A stretch of DNA of 64,000 bases from an uncultured Myxococcales bacterium (GCA_964545715.1 CAZJHX010000039.1:4204-68203), one strand, 5' to 3'. Positions 1-22,225 are shown, counted from the first letter of the stretch. A program made the numbers and translations. The notes: a model not told the origin generated them from the letters alone.

Positions 1-854
1 ACTGGCGTGTCGGCGACGGGGCCCAGGTCCTTTTGCGCCAGCGCCAGGGCGCGGATGTGGATGGTCTGGCCGGGGCGATACAGCGGCTTGTCCGTGGAGA
101 CGAACAGCACGGGCGCCCCGGGCGCGACCACGGTCACCGGCCGTTTTACGACCACCGGCTGGCCGTCGATGGAGGTCCGCGCCTCGATCGCAAACTCGGA
201 GCCGTCGACCGGCGCGCTGAGATCAAACGCCGCGCGGCCACCGGGATCGGTGCCCATCGCTGCGCCGTTGACCGTGACCTCCCGGTCCGGGATCAGCTGG
301 TCCGTCTCTAGATCCCGCACCCACACCCGGGTGCGCGTCGCGGCGCCGGCGTCCACACGCTTCGGCGCCCAGACCCGCAGTCCAAGCTTGGGTTGGGTCA
401 CATACAAGCTGCGCATGCCGTAGACCTCGGCGTCCGCGCCCGCGACGGCGATGCCGTAGCGGATCAGCTGGCCCGCCTGCAGCCCCTGGCCTTCCGGCGG
501 TCCCGCGCCCTTCACCAGAACGGAGACGTCGTTGGTCCCCGGCTCCAGCTTGAACGTGGTCGTCCCCGACGGTCCCTCCAGGGAGTCCAGCGGCGTGATC
601 GACACCGCCAGCAGCGCGTTTTTACCCACGCCGTCCACGGTGTAGATCGGGATGGTCACGGTGGCGCCGTCGCCGGTGTAGGACGTACGAATTCCCGCCT
701 CTTTGACCTTCAGCGATGCGCTGGACGTCTGCTCGGGATCCGTCTGGGGGTTGGGGTCGGTCGGAATCGGGGCTACGGGCTCGACCGACTCTTCAGTCGT
801 GTCGGTGCACGCCACCGCGGCGATCGCGAATACCGCGATCCATCGCGCTCTCAT
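1..854 (-). CDS. Alpha-2-macroglobulin family lipoprotein, N-terminal part (MG1/MG2 domains). The gene continues beyond the window start.
   Basis: Minus-strand ATG at 854. Translation MRARWIAVFAIAAVACTD has a lipobox-like signal. Downstream the motif VSTDKPLYRPGQTIHIRALA matches the DKPLYRPGQT signature of bacterial A2M MG2 domains. The reading frame stays open to position 1. Confidence 0.65.
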   Translation of the reverse strand, partial: MRARWIAVFAIAAVACTDTTEESVEPVAPIPTDPNPQTDPEQTSSASLKVKEAGIRTSYTGDGATVTIPIYTVDGVGKNALLAVSITPLDSLEGPSGTTTFKLEPGTNDVSVLVKGAGPPEGQGLQAGQLIRYGIAVAGADAEVYGMRSLYVTQPKLGLRVWAPKRVDAGAATRTRVWVRDLETDQLIPDREVTVNGAAMGTDPGGRAAFDLSAPVDGSEFAIEARTSIDGQPVVVKRPVTVVAPGAPVLFVSTDKPLYRPGQTIHIRALALAQKDLGPVADTP

Positions 855-3800
855 GTCTGCCTCTCACCGCCGCCGCACGCATCATAGCCACAGACCCGCT
901 AAGCTGTCCAACGTGCGTTCACTTTGCTTGCGCTGCCAAACCGAGTTTCCTCATCCCGCACCCGCTGTGTGCCCCGATGACGGAAATGAGCTGCGCGAGG
1001 TTTTGACGAGCTACAGCACGGACGAATCCCAGCTTTCGGGTCGCGTGGTCGCCGGGCGATACGTCGTAGAGGCCCTGCTCGGCGTCGGCGGTGCTGGACT
1101 GGTCGTACGCGCGCAGCACGCGTTTTTGAACCGCACGGTGGCACTGAAGCTGCTGCTGCCCGAGCTGCACTCGCACGGCGAGCACCGGGACCGCTTCCTG
1201 CGCGAGGCTCAGGTCGCAAGCCAGGTGCAGCACGAAAACGTCGTACAGATCACCGACTTCGGCATCACCACCGACAAGCTGCACTATCTGGTCATGGAGT
1301 ACCTGGAGGGCTCCGACCTGCGCCAGCTGCTGAAGCGTCGTGGGCCGCTGGACGCCACGGTCGCCGCGCGGTTTGCGCAGCAGCTTTGCAGCGCGCTGGA
1401 GGCGATTCACACGGCCGGCTTCGTGCACCGCGATCTCAAGCCGGCCAACTGCTGGATCGCCGATCCCGACGGCGTGCAGCACCTCAAGCTGCTGGACTTC
1501 GGCATCGCCAGTCTAACCGAGCGCTCGGCCGACGCGGCCTCCATTACCGGCGCCGGAACCACGCTGGGCACGCCACACTACATGGCGCCCGAGCAGATCC
1601 TGGGCGAGGACGTCACGCCGGCAACGGACATCTATGCGCTGGGCTGCACATTGTTCGAGTGTGTGACGGGCCGCCCGGTGTTTGGCGATCTGCCCGTGGA
1701 CGCCGCTTTCGAGGCGCACCTGGAGACCGAGCCACCCAAGCCGTCCAGCGTGGCTGCCGACGTGCCGACCTGGTTCGACAGCGCGATCATGTTGTGCCTG
1801 CGCAAGGAGCCGCGCCGCCGACCGCGCACGGCCGCCGCCGCCAGCCGGATGTTCGGGGCCCGACCGGAGCCGAGGCCCGACCCGCTGCCCCCGGCCCGTC
1901 CGAGTGACGATCCCGATATCAGTGGGCCCGCGTTGGAGACCGGCCGCTGGAGCGAAGAGACCGCGGCGTTTTGGACGCAGCCCAAGCGCGGAGAGGCGCT
2001 GACGCGGCTGGATCAGCCGACCCCAAAGCCGGCTCGCCGGGCGGGGTGGATCATCGCCCTGGCGGTCGTGCTGACAGCCGCCGCAGGCGTCGCGTGGTGG
2101 TCCCAGACGCGGCCCGACCCCGCAAAACCCAGCACTACGCCTGCGCCGGCGCCGACCACGACGACGATGCCCGCCGTCACCTGGCACACGGGCACGGTGT
2201 GGCAGCGCGGGCGTCTGATCGGCGTCGGCACGGTCACGGCAGCGGACGCCAGGCGACGGGCCGCCAGCTATCGCGTAGAAGGGACCACGATCACACGAGT
2301 CAACGGAGCGGGCCGACTGGTCGAGAACGAGGGCGGCATAGCCGTATGGGAGCAGGCCGAGCCCGGTCGGGTCATCGAGCGGGATGCCATGCGACGCACG
2401 AAGCGAGTACATGTGCTGACGGAGGACGGAACGCGCCTCGCCCTGGTCGACCGCAATGGACGGCCGATCGGGGCGCCTGTTCAAGAGCTGTTGACCTACG
2501 ATGCCAACGGCTTCATCGCCAGCCGGCGCACCGTCAGCGCCGGCACGGACAGCCCGCGGATGGGCGTTTTGGGTAGCTGGGGGCAGCGGTTCGTGCGTAA
2601 CTCGGCAGGCCTGACGACCGAAGTAGCGGAGCTTGGACCTGACGGCGAGGACGGCACCGATGAGACCGGCCTGGCGCGGGCGACCTTCACGCACAACGAC
2701 CGGCTGGAGCTGGTCCGCCTGCAGCGCTTCGATCGAGACGGGGCGCCGATTCCGGACAGCGATGGTTGTGAGGCCCGGACCTGGGCGTACGACGCCGCCG
2801 GCAACACCATCAGCGCGGCGTGCCTGCACACCGAGACCACCGAAACGCGAACCACCTACGATTCGGCAGGCCGCGTGACCTCTGCCGCCACATTGGATGG
2901 CGCCGGAAAGCCGGTCGCGGGCGCACTGTGGTATGCCCGCAGCGAGGTCGCGCACTCAGGCGGGGCTACCGACAAACGGTTCTTCGACGCCGAGGGAGCG
3001 CCCACCCTCGCGCAAAGCGGCGCGCATCGCGTGGTCACGCGCTTCAACGAGATCGGATATCCGGTGGAGGTGACCTGGTTCGGTGTGGACGACCGCCCGA
3101 CGCTGAATCGGCAGTGGGTCGCTCGCCGCACAATTCGCTACGACGACCGGGGCAATGAGACGGAGTGGGCGTTGTTTGGGGTCGATGACCAGCCGTGCCT
3201 GGGACGCGACGGATATGCCCGGGTCAGTCGCCGGTTCGACGACCGGGATCAGCTGCTGGAGGAGCGCTATCACGGCAAGCGGGGCGAGCCGGTCTCGGCC
3301 GCGGAGGGGTTTGCCCGGGCGACCTACGCGTACGACGCGGCCGGCAACCGCACCGACGTGCGCTGGTTCGGCGTCGACGGGCGACCCGTGCGCGGTTTTC
3401 GGCGGCAGGTTGCGCACGTCCAGCGCCGCTTCGATGACGCCGGCAATGTCATGCAGGAGCGCACGTTTGGCCCAGACGGCAAGCCGGCCACGGACCGCGA
3501 CGGCGTCGCGGGCTACAACGCGGTGTGGAATCGGGACGGTACGATGGCCAGCCAATCCTGGATCGGTGCCGACGGCGCTCCGACCGTAAGCCGCGCGCGA
3601 TACGCGACGCGCAAGCAGGCCTACAACGCGCGCGGGGCGCTGATCGAGATCCGGCTCTTCGACGTGGCGGGCCGCCCCACCGAGGGCGCCCAGCGCGCTG
3701 CCCGGGAGACGCGCAAGGTGGATGCCCGGGGCCGAATCGTGGAGCGCCGCTATTTCGACACACGCGACCGCCCCGCCCCCAACGCCGTGCGCGTCGCGCG

Positions 3801-4782
3801 CGTTACGGAGACTTATAACCGTCGCGGGGACGTGGTCGAACGCGCCACGTTCGACAAAGACGGCGCCCCGGTGATCGAAGCCGGGCGGCGCGCGGCGCGC
3901 ACGATTACGACGTCCGATCGACGCGGCCAAACGCTGAGCGTGGAGCTGTTCGGCGTGGACGGCAAGCCGACCGCCTCGGGCTTTTTGTGGGCGCGATCGA
4001 CCAGCACCTACGACGCGCGCGGCAACGAGCTGACACGCAGCCACTTTGGACTGGACGGCAAGCCGGTCCTGCTGCGGTCCGGCCACTCCGGCTGGCACGC
4101 CACCTACGACGACCGGGGCCTTCAGCTGTCCCGCACGCTGTTGGGCACCGACGGCAGCCCGGTTGAAGACCGCGACGGCGCCTCCCGATGGGTCACCGAG
4201 TACGACGCGCGCGGCTTCATGACCTCCAAGACGTGGTACCGCCTCAGCGGTGAGATCGGCGGCGGCCCGGTGGGCATGGGACGCCAGACCCAGGCCTATG
4301 ACGCGCGCGGGCGCATCACCGAGCTCGCGACCTTCGGCGCGGACGGACAGCCGCTGGAGGTCGGCCGTGGCCTGGCGTTCGGCCAATTCGCGGGCAAGCC
4401 GGCGCCGGGCGTCGCTCGCCGCGAGTACGAGTACGAGACCGGCTCCACGCGCCGCACGGTGCGGAAATACGCGAACGACGGGTCGCTGATCGAGGAAATG
4501 CTCACCGATCCGACATACGTCAACGTCATCAAGGGCATCCACCGCTTTCGCGGCCTGCTGATCAGCGAGGTGCGCGTCGATTCCATCGCGCACAAAGCCG
4601 GTCTGCAGCCCGGCGACGTGTTGCTCAAATACGCGGGCACGGCGGTGAACCAGCAGTTTGCGCTGAACCGCGCCGTCGAGACCCACGAGGCCACCACGGC
4701 GCGCATCCTCTTCGCCCGCAGAGACGCGGAAACGGAGGTCGAGGCGCCGTCCGGCGACCTCGGGGTCCGCCTGGCCCGCTGA
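853..4782 (+). CDS. Transmembrane Ser/Thr protein kinase with an N-terminal zinc-ribbon-like CxxC..C motif, a kinase domain, one TM helix, about 13 extracellular YD/RHS-like 38-aa repeats and a C-terminal PDZ domain.
   Basis: Kinase subdomains are present: VALKLL, HRDLKPAN, DFGIA, GTPHYMAPE. The TM segment is WIIALAVVLTAAAGVAWW. Repeats have a core of YDxxGN...FGxDGKP. The PDZ-like C-terminus reads GLLISEVRVDSIAHKAGLQPGDVLL. The start is uncertain: ATG 853 overlaps the divergent gene's ATG, and an alternative GTG sits near 913. Confidence 0.8.
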   Translation: MSASHRRRTHHSHRPAKLSNVRSLCLRCQTEFPHPAPAVCPDDGNELREVLTSYSTDESQLSGRVVAGRYVVEALLGVGGAGLVVRAQHAFLNRTVALKLLLPELHSHGEHRDRFLREAQVASQVQHENVVQITDFGITTDKLHYLVMEYLEGSDLRQLLKRRGPLDATVAARFAQQLCSALEAIHTAGFVHRDLKPANCWIADPDGVQHLKLLDFGIASLTERSADAASITGAGTTLGTPHYMAPEQILGEDVTPATDIYALGCTLFECVTGRPVFGDLPVDAAFEAHLETEPPKPSSVAADVPTWFDSAIMLCLRKEPRRRPRTAAAASRMFGARPEPRPDPLPPARPSDDPDISGPALETGRWSEETAAFWTQPKRGEALTRLDQPTPKPARRAGWIIALAVVLTAAAGVAWWSQTRPDPAKPSTTPAPAPTTTTMPAVTWHTGTVWQRGRLIGVGTVTAADARRRAASYRVEGTTITRVNGAGRLVENEGGIAVWEQAEPGRVIERDAMRRTKRVHVLTEDGTRLALVDRNGRPIGAPVQELLTYDANGFIASRRTVSAGTDSPRMGVLGSWGQRFVRNSAGLTTEVAELGPDGEDGTDETGLARATFTHNDRLELVRLQRFDRDGAPIPDSDGCEARTWAYDAAGNTISAACLHTETTETRTTYDSAGRVTSAATLDGAGKPVAGALWYARSEVAHSGGATDKRFFDAEGAPTLAQSGAHRVVTRFNEIGYPVEVTWFGVDDRPTLNRQWVARRTIRYDDRGNETEWALFGVDDQPCLGRDGYARVSRRFDDRDQLLEERYHGKRGEPVSAAEGFARATYAYDAAGNRTDVRWFGVDGRPVRGFRRQVAHVQRRFDDAGNVMQERTFGPDGKPATDRDGVAGYNAVWNRDGTMASQSWIGADGAPTVSRARYATRKQAYNARGALIEIRLFDVAGRPTEGAQRAARETRKVDARGRIVERRYFDTRDRPAPNAVRVARVTETYNRRGDVVERATFDKDGAPVIEAGRRAARTITTSDRRGQTLSVELFGVDGKPTASGFLWARSTSTYDARGNELTRSHFGLDGKPVLLRSGHSGWHATYDDRGLQLSRTLLGTDGSPVEDRDGASRWVTEYDARGFMTSKTWYRLSGEIGGGPVGMGRQTQAYDARGRITELATFGADGQPLEVGRGLAFGQFAGKPAPGVARREYEYETGSTRRTVRKYANDGSLIEEMLTDPTYVNVIKGIHRFRGLLISEVRVDSIAHKAGLQPGDVLLKYAGTAVNQQFALNRAVETHEATTARILFARRDAETEVEAPSGDLGVRLAR

Positions 4783-4805: not shown

Positions 4806-6323
4806 ATGAGAGACATCCGCTGTGTGGTCATCGCGACCTGTTTGTGCGTGGCATCCCCGTCCGCCCTGGCCGAGTCACGCGCGCCCGCCGCCGACGTCGG
4901 CGAGCCCACGCCCGTCATCTCGCCGGGTGAGGACTGGTGCGCCGCAGCCAACGCCGGCGCGCCCATCAAGCTGACCGCCGGCACATTTGCGGGCCCGTGC
5001 GTCATCGACACGGCGACGGCCCACGTCAGCGCCCTGAACAACGCCGATCCGCCCCTCATCGCCTACGACGGCAACAGCTCCAACGTCATCGACGTAATGG
5101 CCGACAACGTGACCCTGCGCGGCCTCGCCTTCGGCCCGACTCAAGACGGCGTGGACGCCATCAAGATCAAATCCGGCAACAACACCCGAGTCGAGTCTTG
5201 TACCTTCACCGGCGTCGCCGGCATCTCGATTTCGGCCAACAGCGCCAACAGCAGCGGCGTCACCATCATCGGCAACCACTTCAAGGACCTGAAGGCCACC
5301 GCAATCTACCTGGGCTGCCACGAAGGCCAGGCCGAGTGTCGCGCCACCGCCGTCCAGGTGCGCGACAACCTCATCGACGGCGTCGTCTCCAGCGGCGTCG
5401 GCTACGGCGTGCAGCTCAAGCTCGACTCCAACGGTTTCATCACGGACAACGTCGTCCACAACACCCAGGGCCCCGGCATCATGGTCTACGGCGACACCGG
5501 CCCCGCGGCCACCATCGAGGTCGTCGGCAACTACGTCGTCGGCTCCACCCAGGCCGCCGGCATCGAGGTGGGCGGCGGTCCGGCCTTTGTCGCCAACAAC
5601 ATCGTCATCGGCGGCCCCGAGGGCGGCATCTACTCCTACGACTATCAAGACCGCGGCCTCATCCGTCAGATACGGGTCCTGGGCAACACGGTCATCGGCG
5701 ACGGCGGCATGGCCATGCGCCTGGACGACTGGAAATCCGGCAACGAACTCGAGGTCGCCGGCAACGCCGTGTGGCAGATGGTCGGCGACACGGACCCGTT
5801 CCCGCACATGGGCAGCGACGGCGTCTCCACCAAAAACAACCAGGGCTGCGGCAACCCGGACCTGTGCTGGGCCAACGCCATCAAGCGCGACTTCTGGCCG
5901 GTCGAAGACTCCAAGCTGACCGAAGACTCGGGCGTCACCCTCACCACGGATTGGTGTGGCGCCCCACGCGAGACCCCCATCACGTTCGGCGCGCTTCAGC
6001 TCACCGAAGCCGAGAGCCCGGGCCCGCTGCCCATCGACTTCAAGGCCGCGTGCCCACAACCCGCCCCGCCGGATCCGCCGGACAACTCCGGTCGCCTCGA
6101 CCCCGAGACCGGCGCCGTAATCACCTCAGACGTCGGTGTCTCGCCCCTGGCCGACGACGAACAGCCGCCGCCTTCCAGAGCCGAGCGCCCCGACAGCGGC
6201 GGCTGCACGCACACCGGCGCCCCATCGCCCGGGTCAGCGGCGATGCTTCTGTTGCTGCTTCTCAGTCTTGCGTTACGTTGGACTTCAGCCAGGCCGCAGC
6301 CCAGATCAGCAGCAACAGAATAA
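4806..6323 (+). CDS. Secreted right-handed parallel beta-helix repeat protein with a MYXO-CTERM-like tail
   Basis: The signal peptide is MRDIRCVVIATCLCVASPSALA. Beta-helix-type repeats are repeated through the body (NNTRVESCTFTGVAGISISAN, GNHF, GNYVVG, GNTVIG, GNAVW). The C-terminus reads SGGCTHTGAPSPGSAAMLLLLLLSLALRW. Confidence 0.6.
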   Translation: MRDIRCVVIATCLCVASPSALAESRAPAADVGEPTPVISPGEDWCAAANAGAPIKLTAGTFAGPCVIDTATAHVSALNNADPPLIAYDGNSSNVIDVMADNVTLRGLAFGPTQDGVDAIKIKSGNNTRVESCTFTGVAGISISANSANSSGVTIIGNHFKDLKATAIYLGCHEGQAECRATAVQVRDNLIDGVVSSGVGYGVQLKLDSNGFITDNVVHNTQGPGIMVYGDTGPAATIEVVGNYVVGSTQAAGIEVGGGPAFVANNIVIGGPEGGIYSYDYQDRGLIRQIRVLGNTVIGDGGMAMRLDDWKSGNELEVAGNAVWQMVGDTDPFPHMGSDGVSTKNNQGCGNPDLCWANAIKRDFWPVEDSKLTEDSGVTLTTDWCGAPRETPITFGALQLTEAESPGPLPIDFKAACPQPAPPDPPDNSGRLDPETGAVITSDVGVSPLADDEQPPPSRAERPDSGGCTHTGAPSPGSAAMLLLLLLSLALRWTSARPQPRSAATE

Positions 6324-8310
6324 CGATGTGCCCACCGGCCTCCAGCGGCGTCCGAGTGGCTTGACACCCAGACCCGCCCGAGCTTGACGGCGGCGCCTGC
6401 ACCACCGGTTCTGCGCCCAGGCCAATCCCCGCTGAATCGCAGTCGTTCAGCCGCACGTGCGTGCACTGGCCCGTCGCCGCCGTGCACCCATCCAGCGTGC
6501 ACTTGTCCCCGTCGTCGCACGCGTCATACACCTCGTCGGTGCCGCCGCACGCATCCACCCAGGCGATGTGATCCCCCAGACACACGCGCGACTGGCGCGG
6601 CGCACACACGTTCTCGCACCCGTTCATCACCACGGCGACGTGCCCGCACACGCCGCTGTTGCAGGAATCTGTCGTGCAGGAGTCCCCGTCGTTGCAGTCC
6701 TTGGCCTGCCCGCCGGCGCGCCCGCAGCTGTCCACCCACACGGCGATGTCCCCGGTGCAGGCGGTGGACGCCATCGGAGCGCACCCGGCGCAGTCCTCGC
6801 TGTCGATCGCCGAGTGCGTGCACATGAGCGCGCCGGCATCACATGCATCGGCGGTACACGCGTTGGCATCGTCACAGTCGATCGCCACCGCACCCGCGTT
6901 GCCACAGCTGTCCAGCCACACCAGGCGCCCCCCGGCACACGCTTTAGAGGTCTGCGAGGTGCACGCCTGGCACTGCGCGTCGCTCAGCTGATCGTGCGTG
7001 CATGCGCCACTCAACGCAGAGCATCCGTCAACGGTGCACGCGTTGCCGTCGTCGCAGGCGTCCACGAGCGCGCCCACGTTGCCGCACGTGTCGGTCGCGT
7101 ACAGCGCGGCGCCATGACACAGCCGCGCCGAAACGGGCTCACAGCTGGGCGGCTTCACCTCGGGCTCGGGCTCGGGCTCCGGCTCCGGCTCGGGGTCCGG
7201 CGACTCCGGCTCGGGCTCCGGCTCCGGCACCACGGAATGATAGGTCACCGACAACCGAAACGCGTCCACCCAGATGTCGCTGTCCTTGTATCCGCCTGGA
7301 TGCTCGTGCAGCGAAACACGCCCGGTCAGCTCCGCCAGCTGGGCCCAGGTCCACGCGTCCTGAGAGCCGGTCAAGTCGACCTCCACCCACTCCAGCGTCG
7401 TATGCGAGAAGTTCGTCGTCACACCACCGGCCCCCAGCTTGGCGATCAGCTGATACTTGCCCGAGTCGTATTGCATGCGGGCACGCACGCCCACCACCAC
7501 GCTGGTGATCACCTCGTCACCCTCGGGATCGCAGACCGCAAATCCGCCGCCGGTGAGGGCCTCGCCTTTGTCCAGGTTCTCGTTGTGCGCCACCTGGTCG
7601 TCGGCCGCGCCCAGCGCGTGCTCATTCTGCGACCAGCCCGCCGCCGACGGTACCGACGTCGCATAAACCACCTGCGACGCACCATCGGCGCCGCCGACCA
7701 GGCACGGGTCCGCAGGCGGCGGCTCCGGCGGAGGCGGCGCGTCGCCGCAGGTGACCAGCTTGAAGATCACGGCGTCCGCTTCGTCCGACTTGTCATCATC
7801 GGTGCCATCCAGCACAACCTTGCCGTTGCCGGGCTCCAGGTAATGCGCCCCCAGGCTGGCGGCAACGGGTCCGTGTGCGTCGTCCTCGGTCGTAGCGCCG
7901 TCGGTCTGATCGACCACGGTCTCGACCACGCTGCCGTCAGCGGCGTACACAAAGTAGTTGGCGTCATTAGACCGGTTCTTAGTCGCGCGGAAGATGGCGC
8001 GGACCGCCCAGATGCCGGCGATCGGTAGCTCGGGCTGCCACGTGGCCTCGCCCTTGCGATCGGGCCCCCCCACCGTGCTGCTCAGATAACGATAATCGCT
8101 GCCCTGAGACTGGCCCAGGTTGCCCCAGGAGGCCCAGTCGTCGCCGGTCTCGGAGTACCCCGGATCACCGTTGTCCACGACGATCTCCATCCCCAGCTGG
8201 TCGCAGGGCGACGTTGCCCGGGCCGGCCCGGCCGCCAATACCAATAATGAGGACATCAGACCCAGGCACATTTGTGCCCGCTTTGATGACCATAGACCAC
8301 GTCCGCTCAT
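6262..8310 (-). CDS. Exported protein with two N-terminal golvesin/Xly-like carbohydrate-binding-like domains, a PE-rich linker, four Myxococcus-type cysteine-rich repeats and a MYXO-CTERM-like tail
   Basis: The signal peptide is MSGRGLWSSKRAQMCLGLMSSLLVLAAGPARA (I start at 8310, not the ORF-track 8502). The N-terminal domain reads DNGDPGYSETGDDWASW...ATW...GIWAVRAIFRATKNRSNDANYFVY. The linker is PEPEPEPE. The four repeats share the core W[LV]D[SA]CGxxG...CDDGNACTxDxC. The C-terminus reads GGSGCQATRTPLEAGGHIVILLLLIWAAAW. Confidence 0.6.
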   Translation of the reverse strand: MSGRGLWSSKRAQMCLGLMSSLLVLAAGPARATSPCDQLGMEIVVDNGDPGYSETGDDWASWGNLGQSQGSDYRYLSSTVGGPDRKGEATWQPELPIAGIWAVRAIFRATKNRSNDANYFVYAADGSVVETVVDQTDGATTEDDAHGPVAASLGAHYLEPGNGKVVLDGTDDDKSDEADAVIFKLVTCGDAPPPPEPPPADPCLVGGADGASQVVYATSVPSAAGWSQNEHALGAADDQVAHNENLDKGEALTGGGFAVCDPEGDEVITSVVVGVRARMQYDSGKYQLIAKLGAGGVTTNFSHTTLEWVEVDLTGSQDAWTWAQLAELTGRVSLHEHPGGYKDSDIWVDAFRLSVTYHSVVPEPEPEPESPDPEPEPEPEPEPEVKPPSCEPVSARLCHGAALYATDTCGNVGALVDACDDGNACTVDGCSALSGACTHDQLSDAQCQACTSQTSKACAGGRLVWLDSCGNAGAVAIDCDDANACTADACDAGALMCTHSAIDSEDCAGCAPMASTACTGDIAVWVDSCGRAGGQAKDCNDGDSCTTDSCNSGVCGHVAVVMNGCENVCAPRQSRVCLGDHIAWVDACGGTDEVYDACDDGDKCTLDGCTAATGQCTHVRLNDCDSAGIGLGAEPVVQAPPSSSGGSGCQATRTPLEAGGHIVILLLLIWAAAWLKSNVTQD

Positions 8311-8513
8311 CGCTTCGACTCCCTGCACGCGTTCTCGGCCCAAGCCGCCGAGCGCACCGGGTCCTATCGCAAGCGCCGTGCCAGCCCCAAAAGTGAGCAA
8401 ATCCTCCACAGACCGGGGTGTCTCGCCGCATGGCCGTATCGGCCATTCGACGTACTGCGCCCACCACCCTCCTGGCACACCGCTTGCGGACGAAAGTCTC
8501 ATCGTGTCTCAAA

Positions 8514-9581
8514 ATGGGAGGATTCATGGGACTGAGACTGGGAATGGGACTGGCGTCGCTCTGCGCGCTTTCTTGGCTCGGCTGCGGCGAGGGTGACCCA
8601 TCGTCCAACGGGGGGCTTGACCCCGTCTACGCGCTGGAAGAGGCGCCGCCGTTCGCACCGACGACGCCGCTGCCCGAAGGCGTCGTTCTACAAGTGACCG
8701 CCGAGGACGAGTCCGAGCTCCCGCTCTTTCTGGCCGCGGACGACCGGCACCTCTACTGGGTGTCGGAGTCCGGCGCCGCGTCCCGGGCCGCCATCGGTAG
8801 CCTGGCCGATGAGAAGCCCGAGCGGTTAGGCACCGATCAGCGCCTGCCCCGATCGCTGGTGCTGAGCAACGCGCACGTCTTCTGGTCGGTGCTGGAGAGC
8901 GACGATGAGGGCGCCCTGCTGCGCGTCGCAAAGGTGGGCGGGCCCGTCACGGAGATCGCCACGGGTCTCATCACCGGGCTCACGATCGACGACGGCCGAA
9001 TCTACTGGACCCAACGTCTGAGCTTGAACCAGGACGTCGCGCGTAGCGCCCGGTTCAACGGGACGGACGTTCGCACGCTCGGGACGGCCCCGGTCATCAG
9101 CGCTGTGGCGGCGGGCGCCGGCAACGTGTACTGGGCGGCCGAGGGCATCTACAGCTCGCCGGCCACCGGGGGTGACGCCGCGCTTGTCACCCACCCGCAC
9201 GGCTTCTTACGCGGCCTCAGCACCACGAACGACGCCGTTGTATGGCTCGATGAGGACAACAGAGTCCGCTCTTTTCACGCCATCAGCGGCGACAAACGCA
9301 ACCTCGCGGACGACGTCGTGGACTTCAGGCTGGGACCTGCCCACATCTACGCCCTGAGCGCGGGGGATGTGCGCGGCATCGTCCGCGTGCCGCTCATCGG
9401 CGGCTCGGTTGAACCGCTCGTGGACGTGTCGGCGTGGAACGTCTTCGGCCTCACTGCGGACAACGGCGCTGTCTACTGGATGGAGACGAGCTCGGAGTGC
9501 CTCGAGATGGTGTGGGACCACAAGTTCGAAAACTGCGTCGAATATGCGCACACCAGAACGATCAACCGGGTCGCCAAGTGA
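8514..9581 (+). CDS. Lipoprotein with YWTD-like beta-propeller blades
   Basis: The internal ATG at 8514 gives MGGFMGLRLGMGLASLCALSWLGC, a lipoprotein signal. The body has recurring blade motifs HLYWV, HVFWS, RIYWT, NVYWA, AVVWL and AVYWM spaced about 40-45 aa apart. Confidence 0.5.
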   Translation: MGGFMGLRLGMGLASLCALSWLGCGEGDPSSNGGLDPVYALEEAPPFAPTTPLPEGVVLQVTAEDESELPLFLAADDRHLYWVSESGAASRAAIGSLADEKPERLGTDQRLPRSLVLSNAHVFWSVLESDDEGALLRVAKVGGPVTEIATGLITGLTIDDGRIYWTQRLSLNQDVARSARFNGTDVRTLGTAPVISAVAAGAGNVYWAAEGIYSSPATGGDAALVTHPHGFLRGLSTTNDAVVWLDEDNRVRSFHAISGDKRNLADDVVDFRLGPAHIYALSAGDVRGIVRVPLIGGSVEPLVDVSAWNVFGLTADNGAVYWMETSSECLEMVWDHKFENCVEYAHTRTINRVAK

Positions 9582-10771
9582 GAGCCGCGTGTGCAGCTGC
9601 GATCGCCGCGATAGCGTGCAGCGACCCCGTCACCGTCGTCTCGGACAACGGCCTGCTGGCCCCTCCACCTGTCGAGCGAGGATCCCAGATCTCGATGACG
9701 GCAGCGCTGGAGGCGGGCCAGGAGGTCTCCTGGTGCCGATACGTCCTGCCGGGCGCCGGAACTCCGGACGGCATCGACGTTGCGCGCATGGAGCACGCGA
9801 CCGGCGGAGCCCTGTCACATCACGTGATCTGGTACCAGATGGCCCAAACGCCCGAGTCGGTCGCGGACAACATGGCGCCCTTTCGGTGCGACGGCGGCAT
9901 TCACCTGCTGAAGGCCGGGGTCCTGTATGCCCCACCCTCCGGCGCCGGTGAGCTGACCTGGCCTGAAAACGTCGCCGCCCATCTGGCGCCGGACGCGGTC
10001 ACGTTGCTGGAGTGGCACGTCATCAACCCCACGCCGAACCCGGTCCGGGCTGAGCTGCGCGTCAATCTGTGGCGCTCAGCCCACCCCCGTCCGATCCCGG
10101 CGGGGACGTTGCTGTTCTACGACTACTTTGTGCATCTGCCGGCGGCGTCAAAGAGCACGGCGCGCATGCGCTGCCGGGTGACGGACGACGTGACGCTGAT
10201 GTGGGCATCCTCGCATATGCACGAGCGCGGCACGGCGTTTACCTCACGACTGCTCACGCGCTTTGGCGCCCCGATCAGGGACCTGTTTTCGGCCGACCGC
10301 TGGGACCCGGACCCGCTGTGGTTTCCGCGTGGCGTGACGTTGGAGCGGGGCCAGTGGGTCGAGTTCGAGTGCGCCTACAACAACCCCGACGACTTCGACG
10401 TCATCGAAGGGGCGGGCGCCGACGACGAGATGTGCATGTTCGTGGGCGGCTACTACCCCAAGATCACCACGCCGTTTGGCGAGAACTGCATCTACGCAGA
10501 CGGCTCGGGCCCGATCTTCGACGGCGCCAACACCTGCGAGCAGTCCCTGGATTGCCTGCGTCAGGCCGACTCCGCCGTCGCCGCCAAAGCCTGCTGGAAC
10601 GCGACCGTGGAGGAGGCCTCCAGCGCCCTGGTCGACGTGGCTTTCGTCTGCGCGGCAGCTCAGTGCCATCCGGTGTGCGACGCCGACTCGGACTCCGCGA
10701 TCACCCCCCAGTGTTTCGATTGCCTGATGCAACAGTGTACGGACGAGCTTGGGGTGTGCTACGACCCTTAA
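9578..10771 (+). CDS. Lipoprotein with a copper type-II ascorbate-dependent monooxygenase-like (PHM/DBH-like) domain and a Cys-rich C-terminal tail
   Basis: The GTG start overlaps the upstream TGA (GTGA). The signal is VRAACAAAIAAIACSD. The motif order and spacing match the CuH/CuM sites of PHM: HH, then about 65 aa to H (EWHVI), about 75 aa to HMH (SSHMHERG), about 75 aa to M (EMCMFVGGYYP). The tail carries 9 Cys. Confidence 0.5.
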   Translation: MRAACAAAIAAIACSDPVTVVSDNGLLAPPPVERGSQISMTAALEAGQEVSWCRYVLPGAGTPDGIDVARMEHATGGALSHHVIWYQMAQTPESVADNMAPFRCDGGIHLLKAGVLYAPPSGAGELTWPENVAAHLAPDAVTLLEWHVINPTPNPVRAELRVNLWRSAHPRPIPAGTLLFYDYFVHLPAASKSTARMRCRVTDDVTLMWASSHMHERGTAFTSRLLTRFGAPIRDLFSADRWDPDPLWFPRGVTLERGQWVEFECAYNNPDDFDVIEGAGADDEMCMFVGGYYPKITTPFGENCIYADGSGPIFDGANTCEQSLDCLRQADSAVAAKACWNATVEEASSALVDVAFVCAAAQCHPVCDADSDSAITPQCFDCLMQQCTDELGVCYDP

Positions 10772-10776
10772 GTAAG

Positions 10777-11253
10777 ATGCAACGGTATCTCCTGATCGCC
10801 GTCGGTCTCATCGTGGTCGCCTGGTTCTTCTGGCCCAAGAAGAAGCAGCTGCCGCCCGAGGCCGCCGTCAGCGCTGCCATCGACGAGATGATCGCGGCCG
10901 CCGAAGGCAAGAGAGCCAAGCCGATCATCGCGCGGCTGTCCAAGTCCTTCAAAGGCGACGGCATGAGCCGCGACCAAGCGAAAGCCGCCATCGTCATGCA
11001 CCTGCAGCGCGGCTCCTGGAGCAAGGTCTTCATCGTCGCGCAAGACGTCGCCGCCGTCGGCCAAACGCAGGTGAACGTGCGGCTCAAGGCGGTGCTGGCG
11101 CGCGGCGGCAACGTCAAGACACTTGCGGATATCGCGCCCGAGTCGGCGGGCGCCTTCCAGTTCACTCTCACCTGGGAGCTGGAAGACGACGACATATGGC
11201 GGATCGTGGCCGGCGCGTACTCCCGCGTCGATGTACGGGGGTTATTGCCCTGA
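10777..11253 (+). CDS. Small membrane-anchored hypothetical protein (158 aa)
   Basis: The ATG lies 6 nt after the upstream stop. An N-terminal TM helix reads MQRYLLIAVGLIVVAWFFWPKKK. No recognisable domain. Confidence 0.45.
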   Translation: MQRYLLIAVGLIVVAWFFWPKKKQLPPEAAVSAAIDEMIAAAEGKRAKPIIARLSKSFKGDGMSRDQAKAAIVMHLQRGSWSKVFIVAQDVAAVGQTQVNVRLKAVLARGGNVKTLADIAPESAGAFQFTLTWELEDDDIWRIVAGAYSRVDVRGLLP

Positions 11254-11254
11254 C

Positions 11255-12121
11255 GTGAAGGCAGCGCTCATTGGTGTCGACTGGGGCATGACGTCTTTTC
11301 AAGCGATGCGGTTGGACCGCGACGGGATCATACTGGACCACATGGAAACCGGCGACGGCGTGCTGTGTGTGACGCCCGGGGAGTTTCCAGCGCGCCTTGA
11401 TGCGCTGATCGGCCCGTGGCTGAAAGATGCGCCGTTCACGCCGGTCGTCATCAGCGGCATGGCTGGCGGCAGGGACGGGTGGCTCGACACCGGCTACCTC
11501 GACTGCCCGCTGCCGCTGAGGACGGTGCGCGGCCACATGATGACGGCGCCGCAGCGCGGGGTCTACATCGTCCCCGGGCTGCGCGTGTCCGGCGATCGAC
11601 TGCGCGCACCGGACGTCATGCGCGGCGAAGTGACCCGCCTACTCGGCCTCGACGCACCGGACTCCGCCTGCGTCTGTTTGCCGGGCCTTCACAGCAAGTG
11701 GGTGTGGCTCAAAGGGGAGCAGGTGCACCGCTTCTCGACCGCCGTCACAGGCGAGGTCTTCAACGCCCTGCGGCCGAGGGGGGAAGACGGCCCAATCGAC
11801 CGCCAAACCCTGGACACGAACGCGTTCGACAGCGGCGTCGCGGCCTCAGGCAAACGCGGCGGATTGTTGCACCAACTGTTTGCCGGTCAGACGCTCCCTG
11901 AGGCCGGCAAGCTGTCCAACGACAACGTCGGCGCGTACCTCTACGGCCTGCTCGTCGGGCACGAAATACGCGGACTGGCGCCACGTGGCGCGATCATCCT
12001 GGTCGGCGAGCCGGCCACCACGCAGCTATATGCGCGCGCCCTGACGAGCCTGGGACGAAAACCAACCGAGGTCGACGGGGTGGAGGCAGCCGCCCGAGGT
12101 CTTGCGAGAATGCTGCGCTAG
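11255..12121 (+). CDS. dgoK: 2-dehydro-3-deoxygalactonokinase family protein (DgoK-like)
   Basis: Motifs align with DgoK along the whole length: IGVDWGMTSFQA (IAIDWGSTNLRAW in E. coli), VVISGMAGGRDGW, VPGL...VMRGEVTRLLG, PGLHSKWV, TAVTGEV. The GTG start is 2 nt after the upstream stop; an alternative ATG at 11231 would overlap it. Confidence 0.75.
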   Translation: MKAALIGVDWGMTSFQAMRLDRDGIILDHMETGDGVLCVTPGEFPARLDALIGPWLKDAPFTPVVISGMAGGRDGWLDTGYLDCPLPLRTVRGHMMTAPQRGVYIVPGLRVSGDRLRAPDVMRGEVTRLLGLDAPDSACVCLPGLHSKWVWLKGEQVHRFSTAVTGEVFNALRPRGEDGPIDRQTLDTNAFDSGVAASGKRGGLLHQLFAGQTLPEAGKLSNDNVGAYLYGLLVGHEIRGLAPRGAIILVGEPATTQLYARALTSLGRKPTEVDGVEAAARGLARMLR

Positions 12122-12128
12122 CCAGCAG

Positions 12129-13841
12129 CTACGGGTTGTAGCGGAACAGGAACGGCCACTGGATGACGCACAGGCCGTTCTCCGGCCTGGGGAATCGCAG
12201 ACGCCGGATCGCGCGCATCACGCAGCCCTCCAGCGCGCCGTGGCGGAGTGTGCCGCCGATCACGTTGGCGGCGGACACCCGGCCGTCCAGACCGATCGTC
12301 CAGCGCGCAGTCATGCGTCCACCCTTGGTAAAGCCAACCATCAGCTGGCGCTCGTAGCAGGCGCGGATGGACGCCGATGCGCGCCGAACGGTGCGACGGA
12401 TATCGCCCTTCTTGCACCCGGTGGTCGTGGTCCCGGTGCCGATCTTGATGCGACGCACGCGCCGCATGTCCTTGCGACCCGGACGCACCTTCACGCCGGT
12501 GCCGTCGCCCGGTCCGGCGATCGGACCGCCGATCTCTTGAAACACGCCGTACGTGTCGCCGCCGGTACCCAGCCCGCGCGTGCTGAAGCCGCGCACGCCG
12601 CCCCCAAATGCGACCTCATCGCCGCGCACGCCGGCCATGGCCGTGGTGATCTTGTTACCGATAGTGCGGTTCTGATCCAGCACCGCCAGCGACTTCGTCA
12701 CCCCTTGGAACCGCAGCGTGTTGATCACCCCGACCAGGCCCACATCCTCGACTTTCTTGGGTCGCGGCCGCGGCGTCGGGTCCGGCTCCGGCGTCGTCTG
12801 CAGCTTGGTCATGTCATCGTCGGGCTCGCCGACGCGCCCGGGGTCGACGACCGGCGCCACGCTGACGTCCTCGGCCGCCCCCTCATCGCTGTCGGTCTGG
12901 GGCTCCTCGATCTCCTCGGGCACCTCCTCGATGATGTAGCTGATGTCGATGTCGAGGTCGCGAAACATCATCGAGTTGCGCTTCACGGAGTCGACCTCCT
13001 CCCAGAGGAACAGCGCCGCCAAGATCACGGACAAGTGGACCAGGCCGCTGACGGCTCCTGCCGCGAACGCGTTGCTGTCGACACCCATCAGCGGGTGCGC
13101 GCCGGGGACGCGCTCGGGCGCCACAAACTGGAAGAACAGCGCCGTCGCGCCCGCGTGCACCAGCCCCCAGTCGGTGTTCTGCAGCGGCACGCGGGTGATG
13201 CCGTCCGCGTCCACGCCCAGGACGTCCCGCCACTCGGCGATAGAGCGCTCCTGACCGTCGATGCGCGCCCGACCGCCCATGTCGCCGTCGACATGAAGCG
13301 TGTACCGCCCGCTACGATGCGCCTTCAGAATCGGCGTCGGATCGTCCGACGTCAGCCCCACATCGCGTGGCTCGGCGTAGATCGTCTCCCGAAGAATGCT
13401 GCCGTTCCAGACCGTGGCCACGCGCAGCGGCCGTGCGCCGCCGAAGAGCACCGCGTCCTGCGCAAAGACGTGCAGCGCCCCGACCAGAATGAGTGAAGCC
13501 CCCGCCTCCAGCAGCAAGAAGCCCGTCGAGGGCGACAGTGACCACGCATCGGGCAGACCGATCTCCGCCGCCGCTCCAAACCAGGCCCACGCCGCCGCTC
13601 CACCCAGGAGCAGCGCGCTGACCGACTGACTGATCACCAGCGCCCGTCGCTTGAAGACGACCGCCGCCACCGTGCCGAGCATCGCCATCAGCGCGATGAC
13701 CGCGGCCGCACGCCCCGGGTCCAGATCGCGCCCGTTCACATGCTCGCCGACCGGCGAAATCAAAAACCAGGGCTCAAAAAAGACCCCAAAGAGCACCAAC
13801 ACAGCGCCCGCCAGCGCCAGGGCATATCCCGCGTACCGCAT
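12129..13841 (-). CDS. AgmX/PglI C-terminal domain-containing membrane protein
   Basis: Several N-terminal TM helices. An acidic, Pro-rich linker follows. The C-terminal roughly 100 aa (CKKGDIRRTVRRASASIRACYERQL...GCVMRAIRRLRFPRPENGLCVIQWPFLF) matches the AgmX/PglI C-terminal fold seen in myxobacterial gliding-motility proteins. Confidence 0.65.
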   Translation of the reverse strand: MRYAGYALALAGAVLVLFGVFFEPWFLISPVGEHVNGRDLDPGRAAAVIALMAMLGTVAAVVFKRRALVISQSVSALLLGGAAAWAWFGAAAEIGLPDAWSLSPSTGFLLLEAGASLILVGALHVFAQDAVLFGGARPLRVATVWNGSILRETIYAEPRDVGLTSDDPTPILKAHRSGRYTLHVDGDMGGRARIDGQERSIAEWRDVLGVDADGITRVPLQNTDWGLVHAGATALFFQFVAPERVPGAHPLMGVDSNAFAAGAVSGLVHLSVILAALFLWEEVDSVKRNSMMFRDLDIDISYIIEEVPEEIEEPQTDSDEGAAEDVSVAPVVDPGRVGEPDDDMTKLQTTPEPDPTPRPRPKKVEDVGLVGVINTLRFQGVTKSLAVLDQNRTIGNKITTAMAGVRGDEVAFGGGVRGFSTRGLGTGGDTYGVFQEIGGPIAGPGDGTGVKVRPGRKDMRRVRRIKIGTGTTTTGCKKGDIRRTVRRASASIRACYERQLMVGFTKGGRMTARWTIGLDGRVSAANVIGGTLRHGALEGCVMRAIRRLRFPRPENGLCVIQWPFLFRYNP

Positions 13842-13944: not shown

Positions 13945-15237
13945 TTGGAGGATCTGCTCGCCGCCCGGTCTCAGATGGCCATGTCCCTCGCATTCCACAT
14001 CGTCTTCGCGGTGGTGGGCATCGGTATGCCGTTGCTCATGGTCATCGCCGAGGGCATGTGGCTGCGCACCCGAGAGGCGGTCTGGCTGGATCTGGCCAAG
14101 CGATGGTCCAAGGGCACCGCCATCATGTTTGCCGTCGGCGCTGTCTCCGGCACGGTCCTCTCCTTTGAGCTGGGCCTGCTATGGCCGGAGTTCATGGCCT
14201 TTGCCGGCCCCATCATCGGCATGCCGTTCTCCCTGGAAGGCTTTGCCTTCTTCCTGGAGGCGATCTTCCTGGGCATCTATCTGTACGGATGGGACCGCGT
14301 ACCTGAGCGCATGCATTGGTTCGCCGGCGTCATGGTCATGATCAGCGGCACCCTCAGCGGCATCTTTGTGGTGTGCGCCAACGCCTGGATGAACACGCCG
14401 ACCGGCTTCACATTGGAGGACGGCAAGCTGGTCCACGTGGACGTGTGGGCCGCCATGTTCAACCCCGCCTCATTCTCGACGGCCCTGCACATGACGCTGG
14501 CGTCGTTTGTCGCCATCGGGTTCGCCGTCGCCGGTATTCACGCGTGGCGGCTGCGCACCGACCCCGAAAGCGAGTTTCACCGGCGCGCGTTCGGCGTTGC
14601 CCTTGCCGTGGGCGCGGTCTTCTCCCTTCTACAGCCGCTCAGCGGCCACATCAGCGCGCAGCACGTCGCCGAGCACCAGCCGGTCAAGCTGGCCGCCATG
14701 AAAGCCCACTGGGAGACCGAGCGCGGCGCGGCCTATCGCATCGGCGGCTGGCCGGACGTCAACGCAGAGAAGACCACCCACGCCATCGAGATCCCCAAGC
14801 TGCTGAGCCTGCTCTCATTCAACGATCCCAACGCCGAAGTCCGAGGGCTCAAGGCCTTCCCAAAAGACGAGCGCCCCAACGTACCGGTCGTGCATTTCGC
14901 GTTTCAGCTCATGGTCGCCTGCGGCGTCGCCATGGCCGGCGCCGGTCTCCTCGGGCTTCTTCTGTGGTGGCGTCGTAAGCGTGTCCCGGTATCGCGACCA
15001 TTTCTCAACCTGATCGTGGCGTGCGCTCCCATGGGCATCATCGCCATCCAGGCCGGTTGGGTCGTGACCGAGGTGGGCCGCCAGCCGTGGATCATCCACA
15101 ACATCATGCGCACCGCCGACGCGGTCACCCCCATGCCCGGCCTCATCATCCCGTTTCTGGCGATGAGCGCGCTATATCTCATCCTGGGCGTGGTCGCCGT
15201 CGTCCTCGTGCGCCGCCACGTGTTCGCCGCGCCATGA
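13945..15237 (+). CDS. cydA: Cytochrome bd ubiquinol oxidase subunit I
   Basis: A TTG start gives MEDLLAARSQMAMSLAFHIVFAVVGIGMPLLM, which aligns to E. coli CydA [29 protein letters not shown]. Multiple TM helices and the GWxxxExGRQPW-like motif (GWVVTEVGRQPWIIHN) are present. An alternative ATG lies at 13975. Confidence 0.85.
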   Translation: MEDLLAARSQMAMSLAFHIVFAVVGIGMPLLMVIAEGMWLRTREAVWLDLAKRWSKGTAIMFAVGAVSGTVLSFELGLLWPEFMAFAGPIIGMPFSLEGFAFFLEAIFLGIYLYGWDRVPERMHWFAGVMVMISGTLSGIFVVCANAWMNTPTGFTLEDGKLVHVDVWAAMFNPASFSTALHMTLASFVAIGFAVAGIHAWRLRTDPESEFHRRAFGVALAVGAVFSLLQPLSGHISAQHVAEHQPVKLAAMKAHWETERGAAYRIGGWPDVNAEKTTHAIEIPKLLSLLSFNDPNAEVRGLKAFPKDERPNVPVVHFAFQLMVACGVAMAGAGLLGLLLWWRRKRVPVSRPFLNLIVACAPMGIIAIQAGWVVTEVGRQPWIIHNIMRTADAVTPMPGLIIPFLAMSALYLILGVVAVVLVRRHVFAAP

Positions 15238-16201
15238 CGCCCGCCGTCTGGATCGCCGTCGCCATGCTGGCATCGCTGGGGGCCTACACCATCACGGGCG
15301 GCGCCGACTTCGGCGGCGGGGTCTGGGATCTGCTCGCACGCGGCCCCCGCGCCGACGCCCAGCGCGCCACCATCGCCAAGGCCATCGCGCCCATCTGGGA
15401 GGCCAACCACGTCTGGCTCATCATCGTGGTCGTGCTGCTGTTCGTCTGCTTCCCGGTCCCGTTCGCCGCCATCTCGACATCCCTGCACATCCCGATGCTG
15501 CTCATGCTCATCGGCATCGTGCTGCGTGGCGCCGCCTTCACTTTTCGCGCCTACGGCCGGCCCAGCCCCGATGAGGTCATCCTCTTCTCACGCCTGTTCG
15601 CCGTCACCAGCCTGCTGACCCCTCTGATGCTCGGCATCGTGCTGGGCGCGGTCGCCCGCGGCGTTCCAGTCGACCCGGTAACAGGACGCGCCACCACCAA
15701 CTTTGTCGACGCCTGGTGGGCGCCCTTCCCCGTCGCCGTCGGCGTGTTCGTGCTGATCCTCTTCGCCTTTCTGGCCGCCGTCTACCTGATCTTGGAGACC
15801 GACGATACAGCCCTTCAAGACGACTTCAGAGCGCGCGCGCTCGGGTCAGGAGTCGCGCTGGCGGCCGCGGCGCTGGTGGCCTTCTTGTTGGCAGGCGGCG
15901 CCGCGCCCGCTCATCCGGCGTTCCACATTCTGACCGGCGCGGCCGCAGTCGGCGCTTTGGCTGCGCTGTGGACACGCCGGTACGCCGTCGCACGCATCCT
16001 CGCGATCGGCCAGGCTACGCTCATCGTCGTCGGCTTCGGCGCCACCCAATACCCCTACATTCTGCCGCCGCACCTGGAGATCGCCGCATGGGCGGCCCCG
16101 GACTCTGTTCTGAGCCCGGTCCTGACCGCTCTGGCGGCGGGAATCGTTGTACTGGTGCCCAGCTTCTGGTACCTGTACGCCGTATTCAAGGGAGCCCGGA
16201 C

Positions 16202-16205
<4 letters not shown>
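15234..16205 (+). CDS. cydB: Cytochrome bd ubiquinol oxidase subunit II
   Basis: ATGA start/stop overlap with cydA. The translation MTPAVWIAVAMLASLGAYTITGGADFGGGVWDLL...IWEANHVWLI is typical of CydB. Confidence 0.85.

Positions 16206-17680
<1,475 letters not shown>

Positions 17681-18322: not shown

Positions 18323-22225
<3,903 letters not shown>

Follow-up and report, generated by a model that had tools for sequence, protein, structure and literature searches.

To our knowledge, the non-coupled binuclear copper monooxygenases of the PHM/DBH type have been studied almost solely in animals, and we know of no bacterial member with an established substrate, reductant or role; a literature search on bacterial PHM/DBH-like enzymes found no relevant paper. 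In these enzymes, the work is divided between two copper sites, i.e., CuH, which takes up electrons, and CuM, where O2 is activated and a C-H bond of the substrate loses a hydrogen atom. In peptidylglycine alpha-hydroxylating monooxygenase (PHM), the residues R240, N316 and Y318 grip the glycine carboxylate and the peptide backbone, and in the animal amidating enzyme PAM the PHM part is joined to a six-bladed beta-propeller lyase (PAL). Dopamine beta-hydroxylase (DBH) possesses a helical, cysteine-containing C-terminal domain used for dimerisation. Here, a bacterial relative of these enzymes is described from a 64-kb stretch of DNA of an uncultured Myxococcales bacterium (GCA_964545715.1, CAZJHX010000039.1:4204-68203), hereafter called the window, in a genome of ~67% GC. 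The region considered, positions 8514-12121, carries four open reading frames (ORFs) on the plus strand, designated genes 1 to 4, with a GC content at third codon positions of 0.82-0.87, as expected for genuine genes at such a genomic GC content. The explanation judged best overall, and held with moderate confidence, is that genes 1 and 2 encode a lipid-anchored, periplasmic, two-protein copper hydroxylase, and that genes 3 and 4 are functionally unrelated to it.

Gene 2 (9578-10771, plus strand) encodes a 397-residue lipoprotein for which the initial annotation had proposed a likeness to PHM and DBH, and this proposal is borne out by profile, fold and active-site residues alike. In Pfam, the superfamily of the PHM/DBH copper type II monooxygenases is represented by a pair of models, namely Cu2_monooxygen (PF01082) and Cu2_monoox_C (PF03712). 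Of the two profile searches that had been put forward as a check, the one for the C-domain was positive (24.5 bits for a cut-off of 23), and the one for the N-domain gave no match at E≤0.1; as a single sequence, gene 2 had no match in the PDB with phmmer. A family profile built from an alignment of gene 2 with nine homologues, on the other hand, matched both rat PHM (E=6e-22) and human DBH (E=1e-20), with both catalytic domains aligned and the alignments ending at about residue 313. Structure prediction, the other check suggested, recovered the two-domain fold of DBH and PHM: the AlphaFold2 model of gene 2 (mean predicted local distance difference test score, pLDDT, of 83.9; predicted template modelling score of 0.81) consists of two beta-sandwiches, at about residues 34-170 and 171-298, and is all-beta over residues 35-293. 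Compared with known structures using Foldseek, it retrieved DBH as the best match (8.7e-15), then over 25 PHM entries (about 1e-12); these matches span 280-306 columns and range from about 1e-14 to 1e-12, the next unrelated fold appearing at only 1e-4. Both the profile and the fold similarity thus greatly exceed what chance would give. As such, gene 2 is a member of the PHM/DBH-type non-coupled binuclear copper monooxygenase superfamily, with a monooxygenase activity predicted from sequence and model.

The arrangement and spacing of the copper ligands reported in the initial annotation, HH...H...HxH...M, are indeed present as H81 H82, H147, H213-x-H215 and M285, separated by 65, 66 and 70 residues as against 64, 70 and 70 in rat PHM, and in the family-profile alignment these residues pair ligand for ligand with PHM. 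At the CuH site (9818-10018), H81, H82 and H147 (codons 9818-9820, 9821-9823 and 10016-10018) correspond to PHM H107, H108 and H172; at the CuM site (10214-10435), H213, H215 and M285 (codons 10214-10216, 10220-10222 and 10430-10432) correspond to H242, H244 and M314, M285 lying in a DEMC motif whose cysteine, C286, is the equivalent of PHM C315. C286 is likely the disulfide partner of C265, a pair equivalent to C293-C315 in PHM, and C199 and C304 plausibly correspond to the C227-C334 disulfide. Across 118 full-length relatives, the six ligands are invariant (118/118), together with C53, C104, C265, E284 and C286, so that both findings on which the initial annotation had made its reading hinge, i.e., similarity to the PHM/DBH families (E=6e-22) and conservation of the His and Met residues in homologues, were obtained. 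This invariance, together with the size of the family given below, indicates that the family is real and that both of its copper sites are strongly constrained.

It was also considered whether gene 2 could be a non-enzymatic lipoprotein, binding, sequestering or transferring electrons through copper in periplasmic copper homeostasis. In support of such a function, putative metal-binding motifs of the MopE type are encoded nearby (15716-17680 and 18323-22225), less than 10 kb from the copper monooxygenase gene, and neither the substrate nor the reductant of gene 2 can be named. The strict retention of both copper sites, including the methionine of CuM, in 118/118 relatives, plus a two-domain cleft, nonetheless is what catalysis calls for and exceeds what copper storage needs. 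The MopE-like DNDCDG motif is moreover found in another organism at a locus (L047) beside an unrelated homologue of gene 3; it is therefore not specific to the present locus, and its link with the copper enzyme is doubtful. A non-enzymatic function is thus deemed highly improbable.

With respect to its substrate, gene 2 departs from PHM. The positions of R240, N316 and Y318 are occupied by S211, M287 and V289, respectively, and throughout the family they accommodate Q/S/A/F/L (R240), M/V/I/L (N316) and I/F/V/L (Y318). Because the residues gripping peptidylglycine are swapped for small or hydrophobic ones, gene 2 is not PHM proper (EC 1.14.17.3), and its substrate would not be a C-terminal glycine. 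More generally, what gene 2 shares with the PHM core of PAM (PDB 1PHM, 1OPM and 1SDW) is the fold of two beta-sandwiches, the CuH and CuM motifs at near-identical spacing, the DEMC motif, the C293-C315 disulfide equivalent and probably that of C227-C334, at a sequence identity of only 12-15%; what sets it apart, besides the substrate residues, is a bacterial lipoprotein anchor, an extra helical tail of ~100 residues with 11 cysteines, the lack of a PAL domain and a donor unlikely to be ascorbate. DBH, within a group also comprising tyramine beta-monooxygenase and MOXD1 (PDB 4ZEL), is structurally the closest (18-19% identity over ~300 columns), from which gene 2 differs by having no DOMON domain and by its context in a prokaryotic periplasm.

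Two further features of the protein concern its anchoring and its C-terminus. The signal peptide of gene 2 ends in a lipobox cysteine (AAIAC14S; codon 9617-9619); this cysteine is found in 116/118 relatives and a lipobox pattern in 103/118. The equivalent residue of gene 1, C24 (SWLGC24G; codon 8583-8585), is invariant in the five gene 1 homologues. From these signal sequences, both proteins are predicted to be lipoproteins. Beyond the catalytic domains, gene 2 carries the cysteine-rich tail already recorded in the initial annotation (residues 299-397; 10472-10768), with 11 cysteines in the last 94 residues and five predicted helices (320-329, 333-341, 345-362, 377-386 and 388-395, as assigned by DSSP on the AlphaFold2 model). 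The tail has no Pfam match; C304, C326, C339, C358 and C387 are kept in 100-112 of the 118 relatives and, C304 being plausibly engaged with C199, the ten remaining cysteines could form five disulfides. The likeness of this tail to the dimerisation domain of DBH is one of description, the alignments ending at about residue 313, i.e., before the tail proper. A haem-binding tail, considered from the string C-AAAQ-CH, was rejected as unlikely because this C-x4-CH string, with its histidine, is not conserved in the relatives P0001-P0004.

The view that such enzymes are rare and poorly characterised in bacteria holds in its second part, in keeping with the literature search, and fails in its first. 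In an exhaustive HMMER profile search of 1.84 billion cluster representatives, there were 9686 matches at E≤1e-3, of which 591 reached E≤1e-30, the latter belonging mostly to Polyangiales; a word-indexed homologue search retrieved only 10 matches for gene 2, which gave a false look of rarity. The nearest relatives are found in Polyangiaceae and in metagenome-assembled genomes (MAGs) of Polyangiales, which, together with a myxobacterial myxo_SS_tail domain encoded next to gene 4, places the window in the Myxococcota. A sister subfamily (P0006-P0010, from Polyangiaceae MAGs) shares with gene 2 the catalytic core, the ligands and the phylum, and differs in that (i) both Pfam copper monooxygenase domains are matched, (ii) an N-terminal module with a CxxCH motif, weakly cytochrome-c-like, replaces the simple lipobox leader, (iii) the cysteine-rich tail is missing, and (iv) the conserved neighbours are others. 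Its loci include L011 (2815-6956) as well as L025, L031 and L034; proteins of 195 and 224 residues recur beside genes of this type in several loci and, in L011, a gene for a 521-residue cytochrome-c/RoxA-like protein lies two genes downstream of the PHM-like gene. Elsewhere in the family, a 703-residue protein found in the exhaustive search (P0026) has a PHM-like core fused to a C-terminal alpha/beta-hydrolase (Abhydrolase_1, E=2e-29), a fusion which may hint at substrates of an ester or lipid-like class.

The partners of gene 2 were compared across 41 PHM-like loci. Every homologue of gene 2 with at least 44% identity has a homologue of gene 1 directly upstream (L001, L004, L007 and L013; L005 and L012, copies of L004 from one MAG, and L006, an identical protein, are counted with L004), and a hidden Markov model (HMM) of gene 1 finds its family in exactly five of the 41 loci. 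In all five, namely the window and these four, the two genes overlap by 4 nt at an NTGA junction (GTGA in three, TTGA and ATGA in one each); in the window, the stop codon of gene 1 and the start codon of gene 2 share the GTGA at 9578-9581, as the initial annotation had it. Sequence identity across the pair loci amounts to 44-55% for gene 2 but only 25-29% for gene 1, a contrast which fits a conserved enzyme with a faster-evolving binding partner. All other neighbours differ among these loci; in the four outside the window, what follows gene 2 is unrelated and on the opposite strand. Ser/Thr kinases recur at 7 of the 41 loci, but are ubiquitous in the phylum anyway. As part of the explanation given above, and with the same moderate confidence, genes 1 and 2 are regarded as a self-contained, translationally coupled two-gene module of a narrow clade within the Polyangiales (Myxococcota).

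Gene 1 (8514-9581, plus strand) encodes a 355-residue protein (345 residues in the JGI gene call, which starts at the alternative ATG at 8544). It was annotated from the outset as a YWTD-like beta-propeller lipoprotein, an assignment to which the lipobox, the profile matches and the fold matches all conform. The profile of its five-member family matches, from sequence alone, LRP2 at 4e-15, LRP6 at 1e-8 and a single LRP4 propeller at 2.5e-7, and from a large protein database it also retrieves a bacterial protein (P0166) with four Ldl_recept_b repeats. The AlphaFold2 model, built on a shallow alignment, has an overall pLDDT of 76.7, with values exceeding 85 in most of residues 70-330, and comprises 27 strands arranged as six four-stranded blades and a long C-terminal hairpin. 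The top matches of this model with Foldseek are the YWTD propellers of LRP6, LRP2 and LDLR (5.5e-11), followed by WD40 proteins and BamB. The likeness with the YWTD (LDL-receptor class B) propellers of LRP4, LRP6, LRP2, LDLR and nidogen thus extends over profile and fold, the blades bearing x-V/I-Y/F-W motifs; unlike them, gene 1 is a lipoprotein, lacks EGF modules and stays below the Ldl_recept_b threshold, and its model departs from a clean six-blade unit by the extra, disulfide-bridged hairpin. At the Pfam threshold, Ldl_recept_b (PF00058) is absent from all five family members, PQQ_2/BamB and DUF5050 giving weak, sub-threshold matches. Invariant in the family are R8, C24, G25, G87, G143, G151, W165, W322, C329, K337, C341 and R352, the most conserved part being the C-terminal beta-hairpin (9498-9569) with W322, C329/C341, K337 and R352.

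A PHM-like gene translationally coupled to a propeller gene recalls the way PAM joins a hydroxylase to a propeller lyase, and the pair could on that account be a split bacterial PAM, in which gene 2 would hydroxylate and gene 1, as a PAL-like lyase, would complete the amidation of peptide C-termini. Yet, the invariant residues of the gene 1 family include no His, Tyr or Asp able to form the Zn(His)3/Tyr site of PAL, its profile matches YWTD propellers and not PAL even though the PDB set searched contains full-length PAM, no PAL entry figures among the top 50 fold matches, and gene 2 does not keep R240, N316 and Y318 of PHM. A PAL-like lyase was accordingly rejected as an assignment for gene 1, with neither a conserved His/Tyr site nor PAL among the profile matches or the top 50 fold matches, and an amidating pair is considered extremely improbable. 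The invariant hairpin raises another idea, namely that gene 1 is the substrate, modified post-translationally by the copper enzyme, e.g., in the hairpin loop around K337. The stretch W322...C329...K337...C341...R352 is after all the most conserved of a fast-evolving protein, overlapping genes would ensure production in fixed ratio, and the pairing of genes for an enzyme and its substrate is common in peptide-modification systems. There is however no precedent for a PHM/DBH enzyme acting on a folded 30-kDa propeller, a binding interface, or the closing of the propeller, would account just as well for the conserved hairpin, and PHM-like homologues without gene 1 retain the same active site, so that gene 1 is quite unlikely to be the substrate.

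The initial annotation had taken all four genes as a single operon, and the intergenic distances are indeed very short. The stop codon TAA of gene 2 (10769-10771) is followed by the ATG of gene 3 at 10777, and the stop codon TGA of gene 3 (11251-11253) by the GTG of gene 4 at 11255; the gaps, first given as 6 and 2 nt, are really 5 and 1 nt, one-base errors that are immaterial to the tightness of the junctions. With the alternative ATG start of gene 4 at 11231 (JGI gene call), the latter would even overlap gene 3 by 23 nt. A scan of 7.8-12.6 kb found no terminator or promoter-like site between the four genes and no Rfam element. As such, the junctions are compatible with co-transcription; what does not stand is the idea of one functional unit, as the gene set is not kept across genomes. 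No gene 3 or gene 4 occurs near any other PHM-like locus, including the four other gene 1-gene 2 loci, so that the neighbourhood comparison foreseen in the initial annotation returned the pair in five loci and genes 3 and 4 in none besides the organism of the window. The window is matched at 96-100% identity by contigs in JGI and ENA metagenomes, and only in contigs of that identity, i.e., from the same organism, is the order of genes 2, 3 and 4 seen.

Gene 3 (10777-11253, plus strand) encodes a protein of 158 residues with one N-terminal transmembrane helix followed by a domain of ~130 residues, for which no match was found in Pfam, NCBIfam or the PDB; for none of the four genes was an NCBIfam model matched. 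Only four homologues were found among 5.8 billion proteins, one of which is from the same organism; of the three others, one stands beside a rubrerythrin gene and another in an FGE-sulfatase cluster, and by HMM and BLAST no neighbour in these two contexts is akin to genes 1, 2 or 4. The possibility of a hidden link between genes 2 and 3, through remote PHM-like or propeller proteins beside the gene 3 homologues, was rejected, HMMs having found none. The FGE-sulfatase cluster (L050, 376-5439; ENA ERZ24794645) comprises an FGE-sulfatase-domain protein, a 390-residue protein of unknown nature, the gene 3 homologue, and then proteins of 295 and 459 residues, likewise of unknown nature; the ORF for the 390-residue protein overlaps that of the gene 3 homologue by 4 nt, the 459-residue protein is cysteine-rich, and no member of the cluster is related to genes 1, 2 or 4. 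In the organism of the window, gene 3 is probably co-transcribed with its upstream neighbours, outside the conserved module.

Gene 4 (11255-12121, plus strand) encodes a 288-residue kinase of the ASKHA type whose assignment to the DgoK family (2-dehydro-3-deoxygalactonokinase), made in the initial annotation, proved sound: Pfam DGOK is matched at E=1.4e-69 over its full length (profile positions 1-280 of 281), and the motifs DWGxT/S, DVMRGE and HSKW are common to reference homologues. The identity to the nearest metagenomic relatives does not exceed 40%. Gene 4 is thus similar to the DgoK of dgo operons over its full length and in its motifs, and differs from it in its surroundings: a DgoA-like aldolase is adjacent in 38/42 reference DgoK loci, whereas no DgoA homologue adjoins gene 4 or was detected by tblastn anywhere in the 64-kb window, which has no dehydratase either. 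Gene 4 may phosphorylate another 2-keto-3-deoxy acid or depend on distant partner genes.

On these grounds, the hypothesis of four genes forming one operon and one new pathway, e.g., oxidation and then phosphorylation of a sugar-acid-like compound, is regarded as very unlikely. The junctions (GTGA, 5 nt and 1 nt), uninterrupted by any terminator or promoter-like site, and an order preserved in several contigs of this organism from metagenomes are what one would expect of it. It is contradicted by the four independent gene 1-gene 2 loci devoid of genes 3 and 4, by the unrelated surroundings of the gene 3 homologues and by the reference DgoK loci, which carry a DgoA-like aldolase, a short-chain dehydrogenase/reductase and a large protein (by eye, a dehydratase of the IlvD/Edd type), and never a PHM-like gene. 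Furthermore, genes 1 and 2 encode exported lipoproteins and DgoK is an ATP-dependent kinase without a signal peptide, which would place them in different compartments. The notion that a propeller, a copper enzyme and a sugar-acid kinase act in one pathway is therefore unsupported, the linkage of the kinase to the pair being absent from the four other pair loci. Since the pair loci lack genes 3 and 4 and gene 3 homologues occur in unrelated contexts, the four genes are not a conserved unit: the cluster would be a lineage-specific juxtaposition, probably on one transcript, and a conserved pathway is not supported. The proposed unit is thereby corrected from four genes to two.

Returning to the two-protein copper hydroxylase, the fold, the conservation of ligands, the lipoprotein signals and the conserved pair with its overlapping junction were all computed; from them we infer a scheme that covers catalysis, the association of the two proteins, what the propeller does, where the electrons come from and which class of substrate is used. 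Gene 2 would be anchored by its lipid and face the periplasm. By analogy with PHM and DBH, the CuH site (H81, H82 and H147) would be fed single electrons by an external donor, and the CuM site (H213, H215 and M285) would bind O2 and remove the hydrogen atom of a C-H bond in a substrate lodged in the interdomain cleft, yielding a hydroxylated product; the substrate would be other than peptidylglycine and possibly hydrophobic. As regards the donor, a periplasmic c-type cytochrome is more likely than ascorbate, as suggested by the N-terminal CxxCH module of the sister subfamily and by the cytochrome-c/RoxA-like gene of L011. Gene 1, in which no conserved catalytic constellation is seen, would be a non-catalytic propeller made in fixed ratio with gene 2, most likely binding it and, by analogy with eukaryotic YWTD propellers, recruiting or presenting a ligand of peptide or protein-like nature. 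The probable role of the disulfide-rich helical tail is to stabilise the enzyme or to serve in docking or oligomerisation. Genes 3 and 4 probably share the transcript in this organism, with a function unrelated to the hydroxylase.

Several points weigh against this scheme. First, the C-domain of gene 2 scores barely over the Pfam cut-off and its N-terminal counterpart is not matched. Second, homologues of gene 2 with 36% identity or less, cysteine-rich tail included, are devoid of gene 1 and stand alone or with other partners, which indicates that the enzyme does not generally need the propeller. Third, the gaps of 5 and 1 nt make co-expression with genes 3 and 4 likely in this organism, where a lineage-specific functional link is possible.

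Several neighbouring genes have features of their own. The larger of the two MopE-related genes (18323-22225, minus strand) encodes a 1300-residue protein in which the putative metal-binding motif Cu-binding_MopE occurs five times (E=5.6e-33), and the other (15716-17680, plus strand) a protein that combines a vWA domain with this motif and ends in a hydrophobic tail rich in Gly and Cys. Directly downstream of gene 4, a 570-residue protein (12129-13841, minus strand) resembles the gliding-motility proteins GltG/GltJ and ends in an AgmX/PglI myxo_SS_tail domain (E=3e-21), a marker of the Myxococcota; past this convergent gene lie those for subunits I and II of a cytochrome bd oxidase (13951-16205, plus strand; Pfam E=6e-151 and 8e-67). 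Upstream and divergent from gene 1, 6262-8502 (minus strand; 669 residues in the shorter JGI call) encodes a secreted, cysteine-rich protein with a Golvesin_C domain, four Dictyostelium-type CTDC repeats and a Pro/Glu-rich linker. It is preceded by a right-handed beta-helix protein of the NosD type, whose hydrophobic C-terminal tail looks like a sorting signal (4806-6323, plus strand), and by a 1359-residue Ser/Thr protein kinase with an RHS repeat and a PDZ domain (703-4782, plus strand). Further away, 27049-28764 (minus strand) encodes a legume-lectin (L-type lectin) domain combined with a bacterial TSP3 repeat, an eukaryote-like lectin unusual in a bacterium.

A more ambitious version of the two-protein copper hydroxylase, held to be unlikely, would make it a myxobacterial periplasmic machine for the hydroxylation of peptides or proteins, in which the propeller captures the ligand, or is itself modified, and the copper enzyme, reduced by cytochromes instead of ascorbate, hydroxylates it. 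If true, it would provide the first functional bacterial example of an enzyme class that, in animals, produces amidated neuropeptides and catecholamines, and might represent a new class of post-translational modification dependent on copper, or of signalling-molecule chemistry, in social bacteria. More broadly, the locus defines a sizeable bacterial family predicted to be lipid-anchored, with a disulfide-rich helical tail and without the substrate residues of PHM, one clade of which comes with a dedicated propeller. This family offers tractable prokaryotic models for the long-debated transfer of electrons between the two coppers and for how a donor other than ascorbate could work, and may reveal a new extracytoplasmic chemistry of C-H hydroxylation in the Myxococcota.

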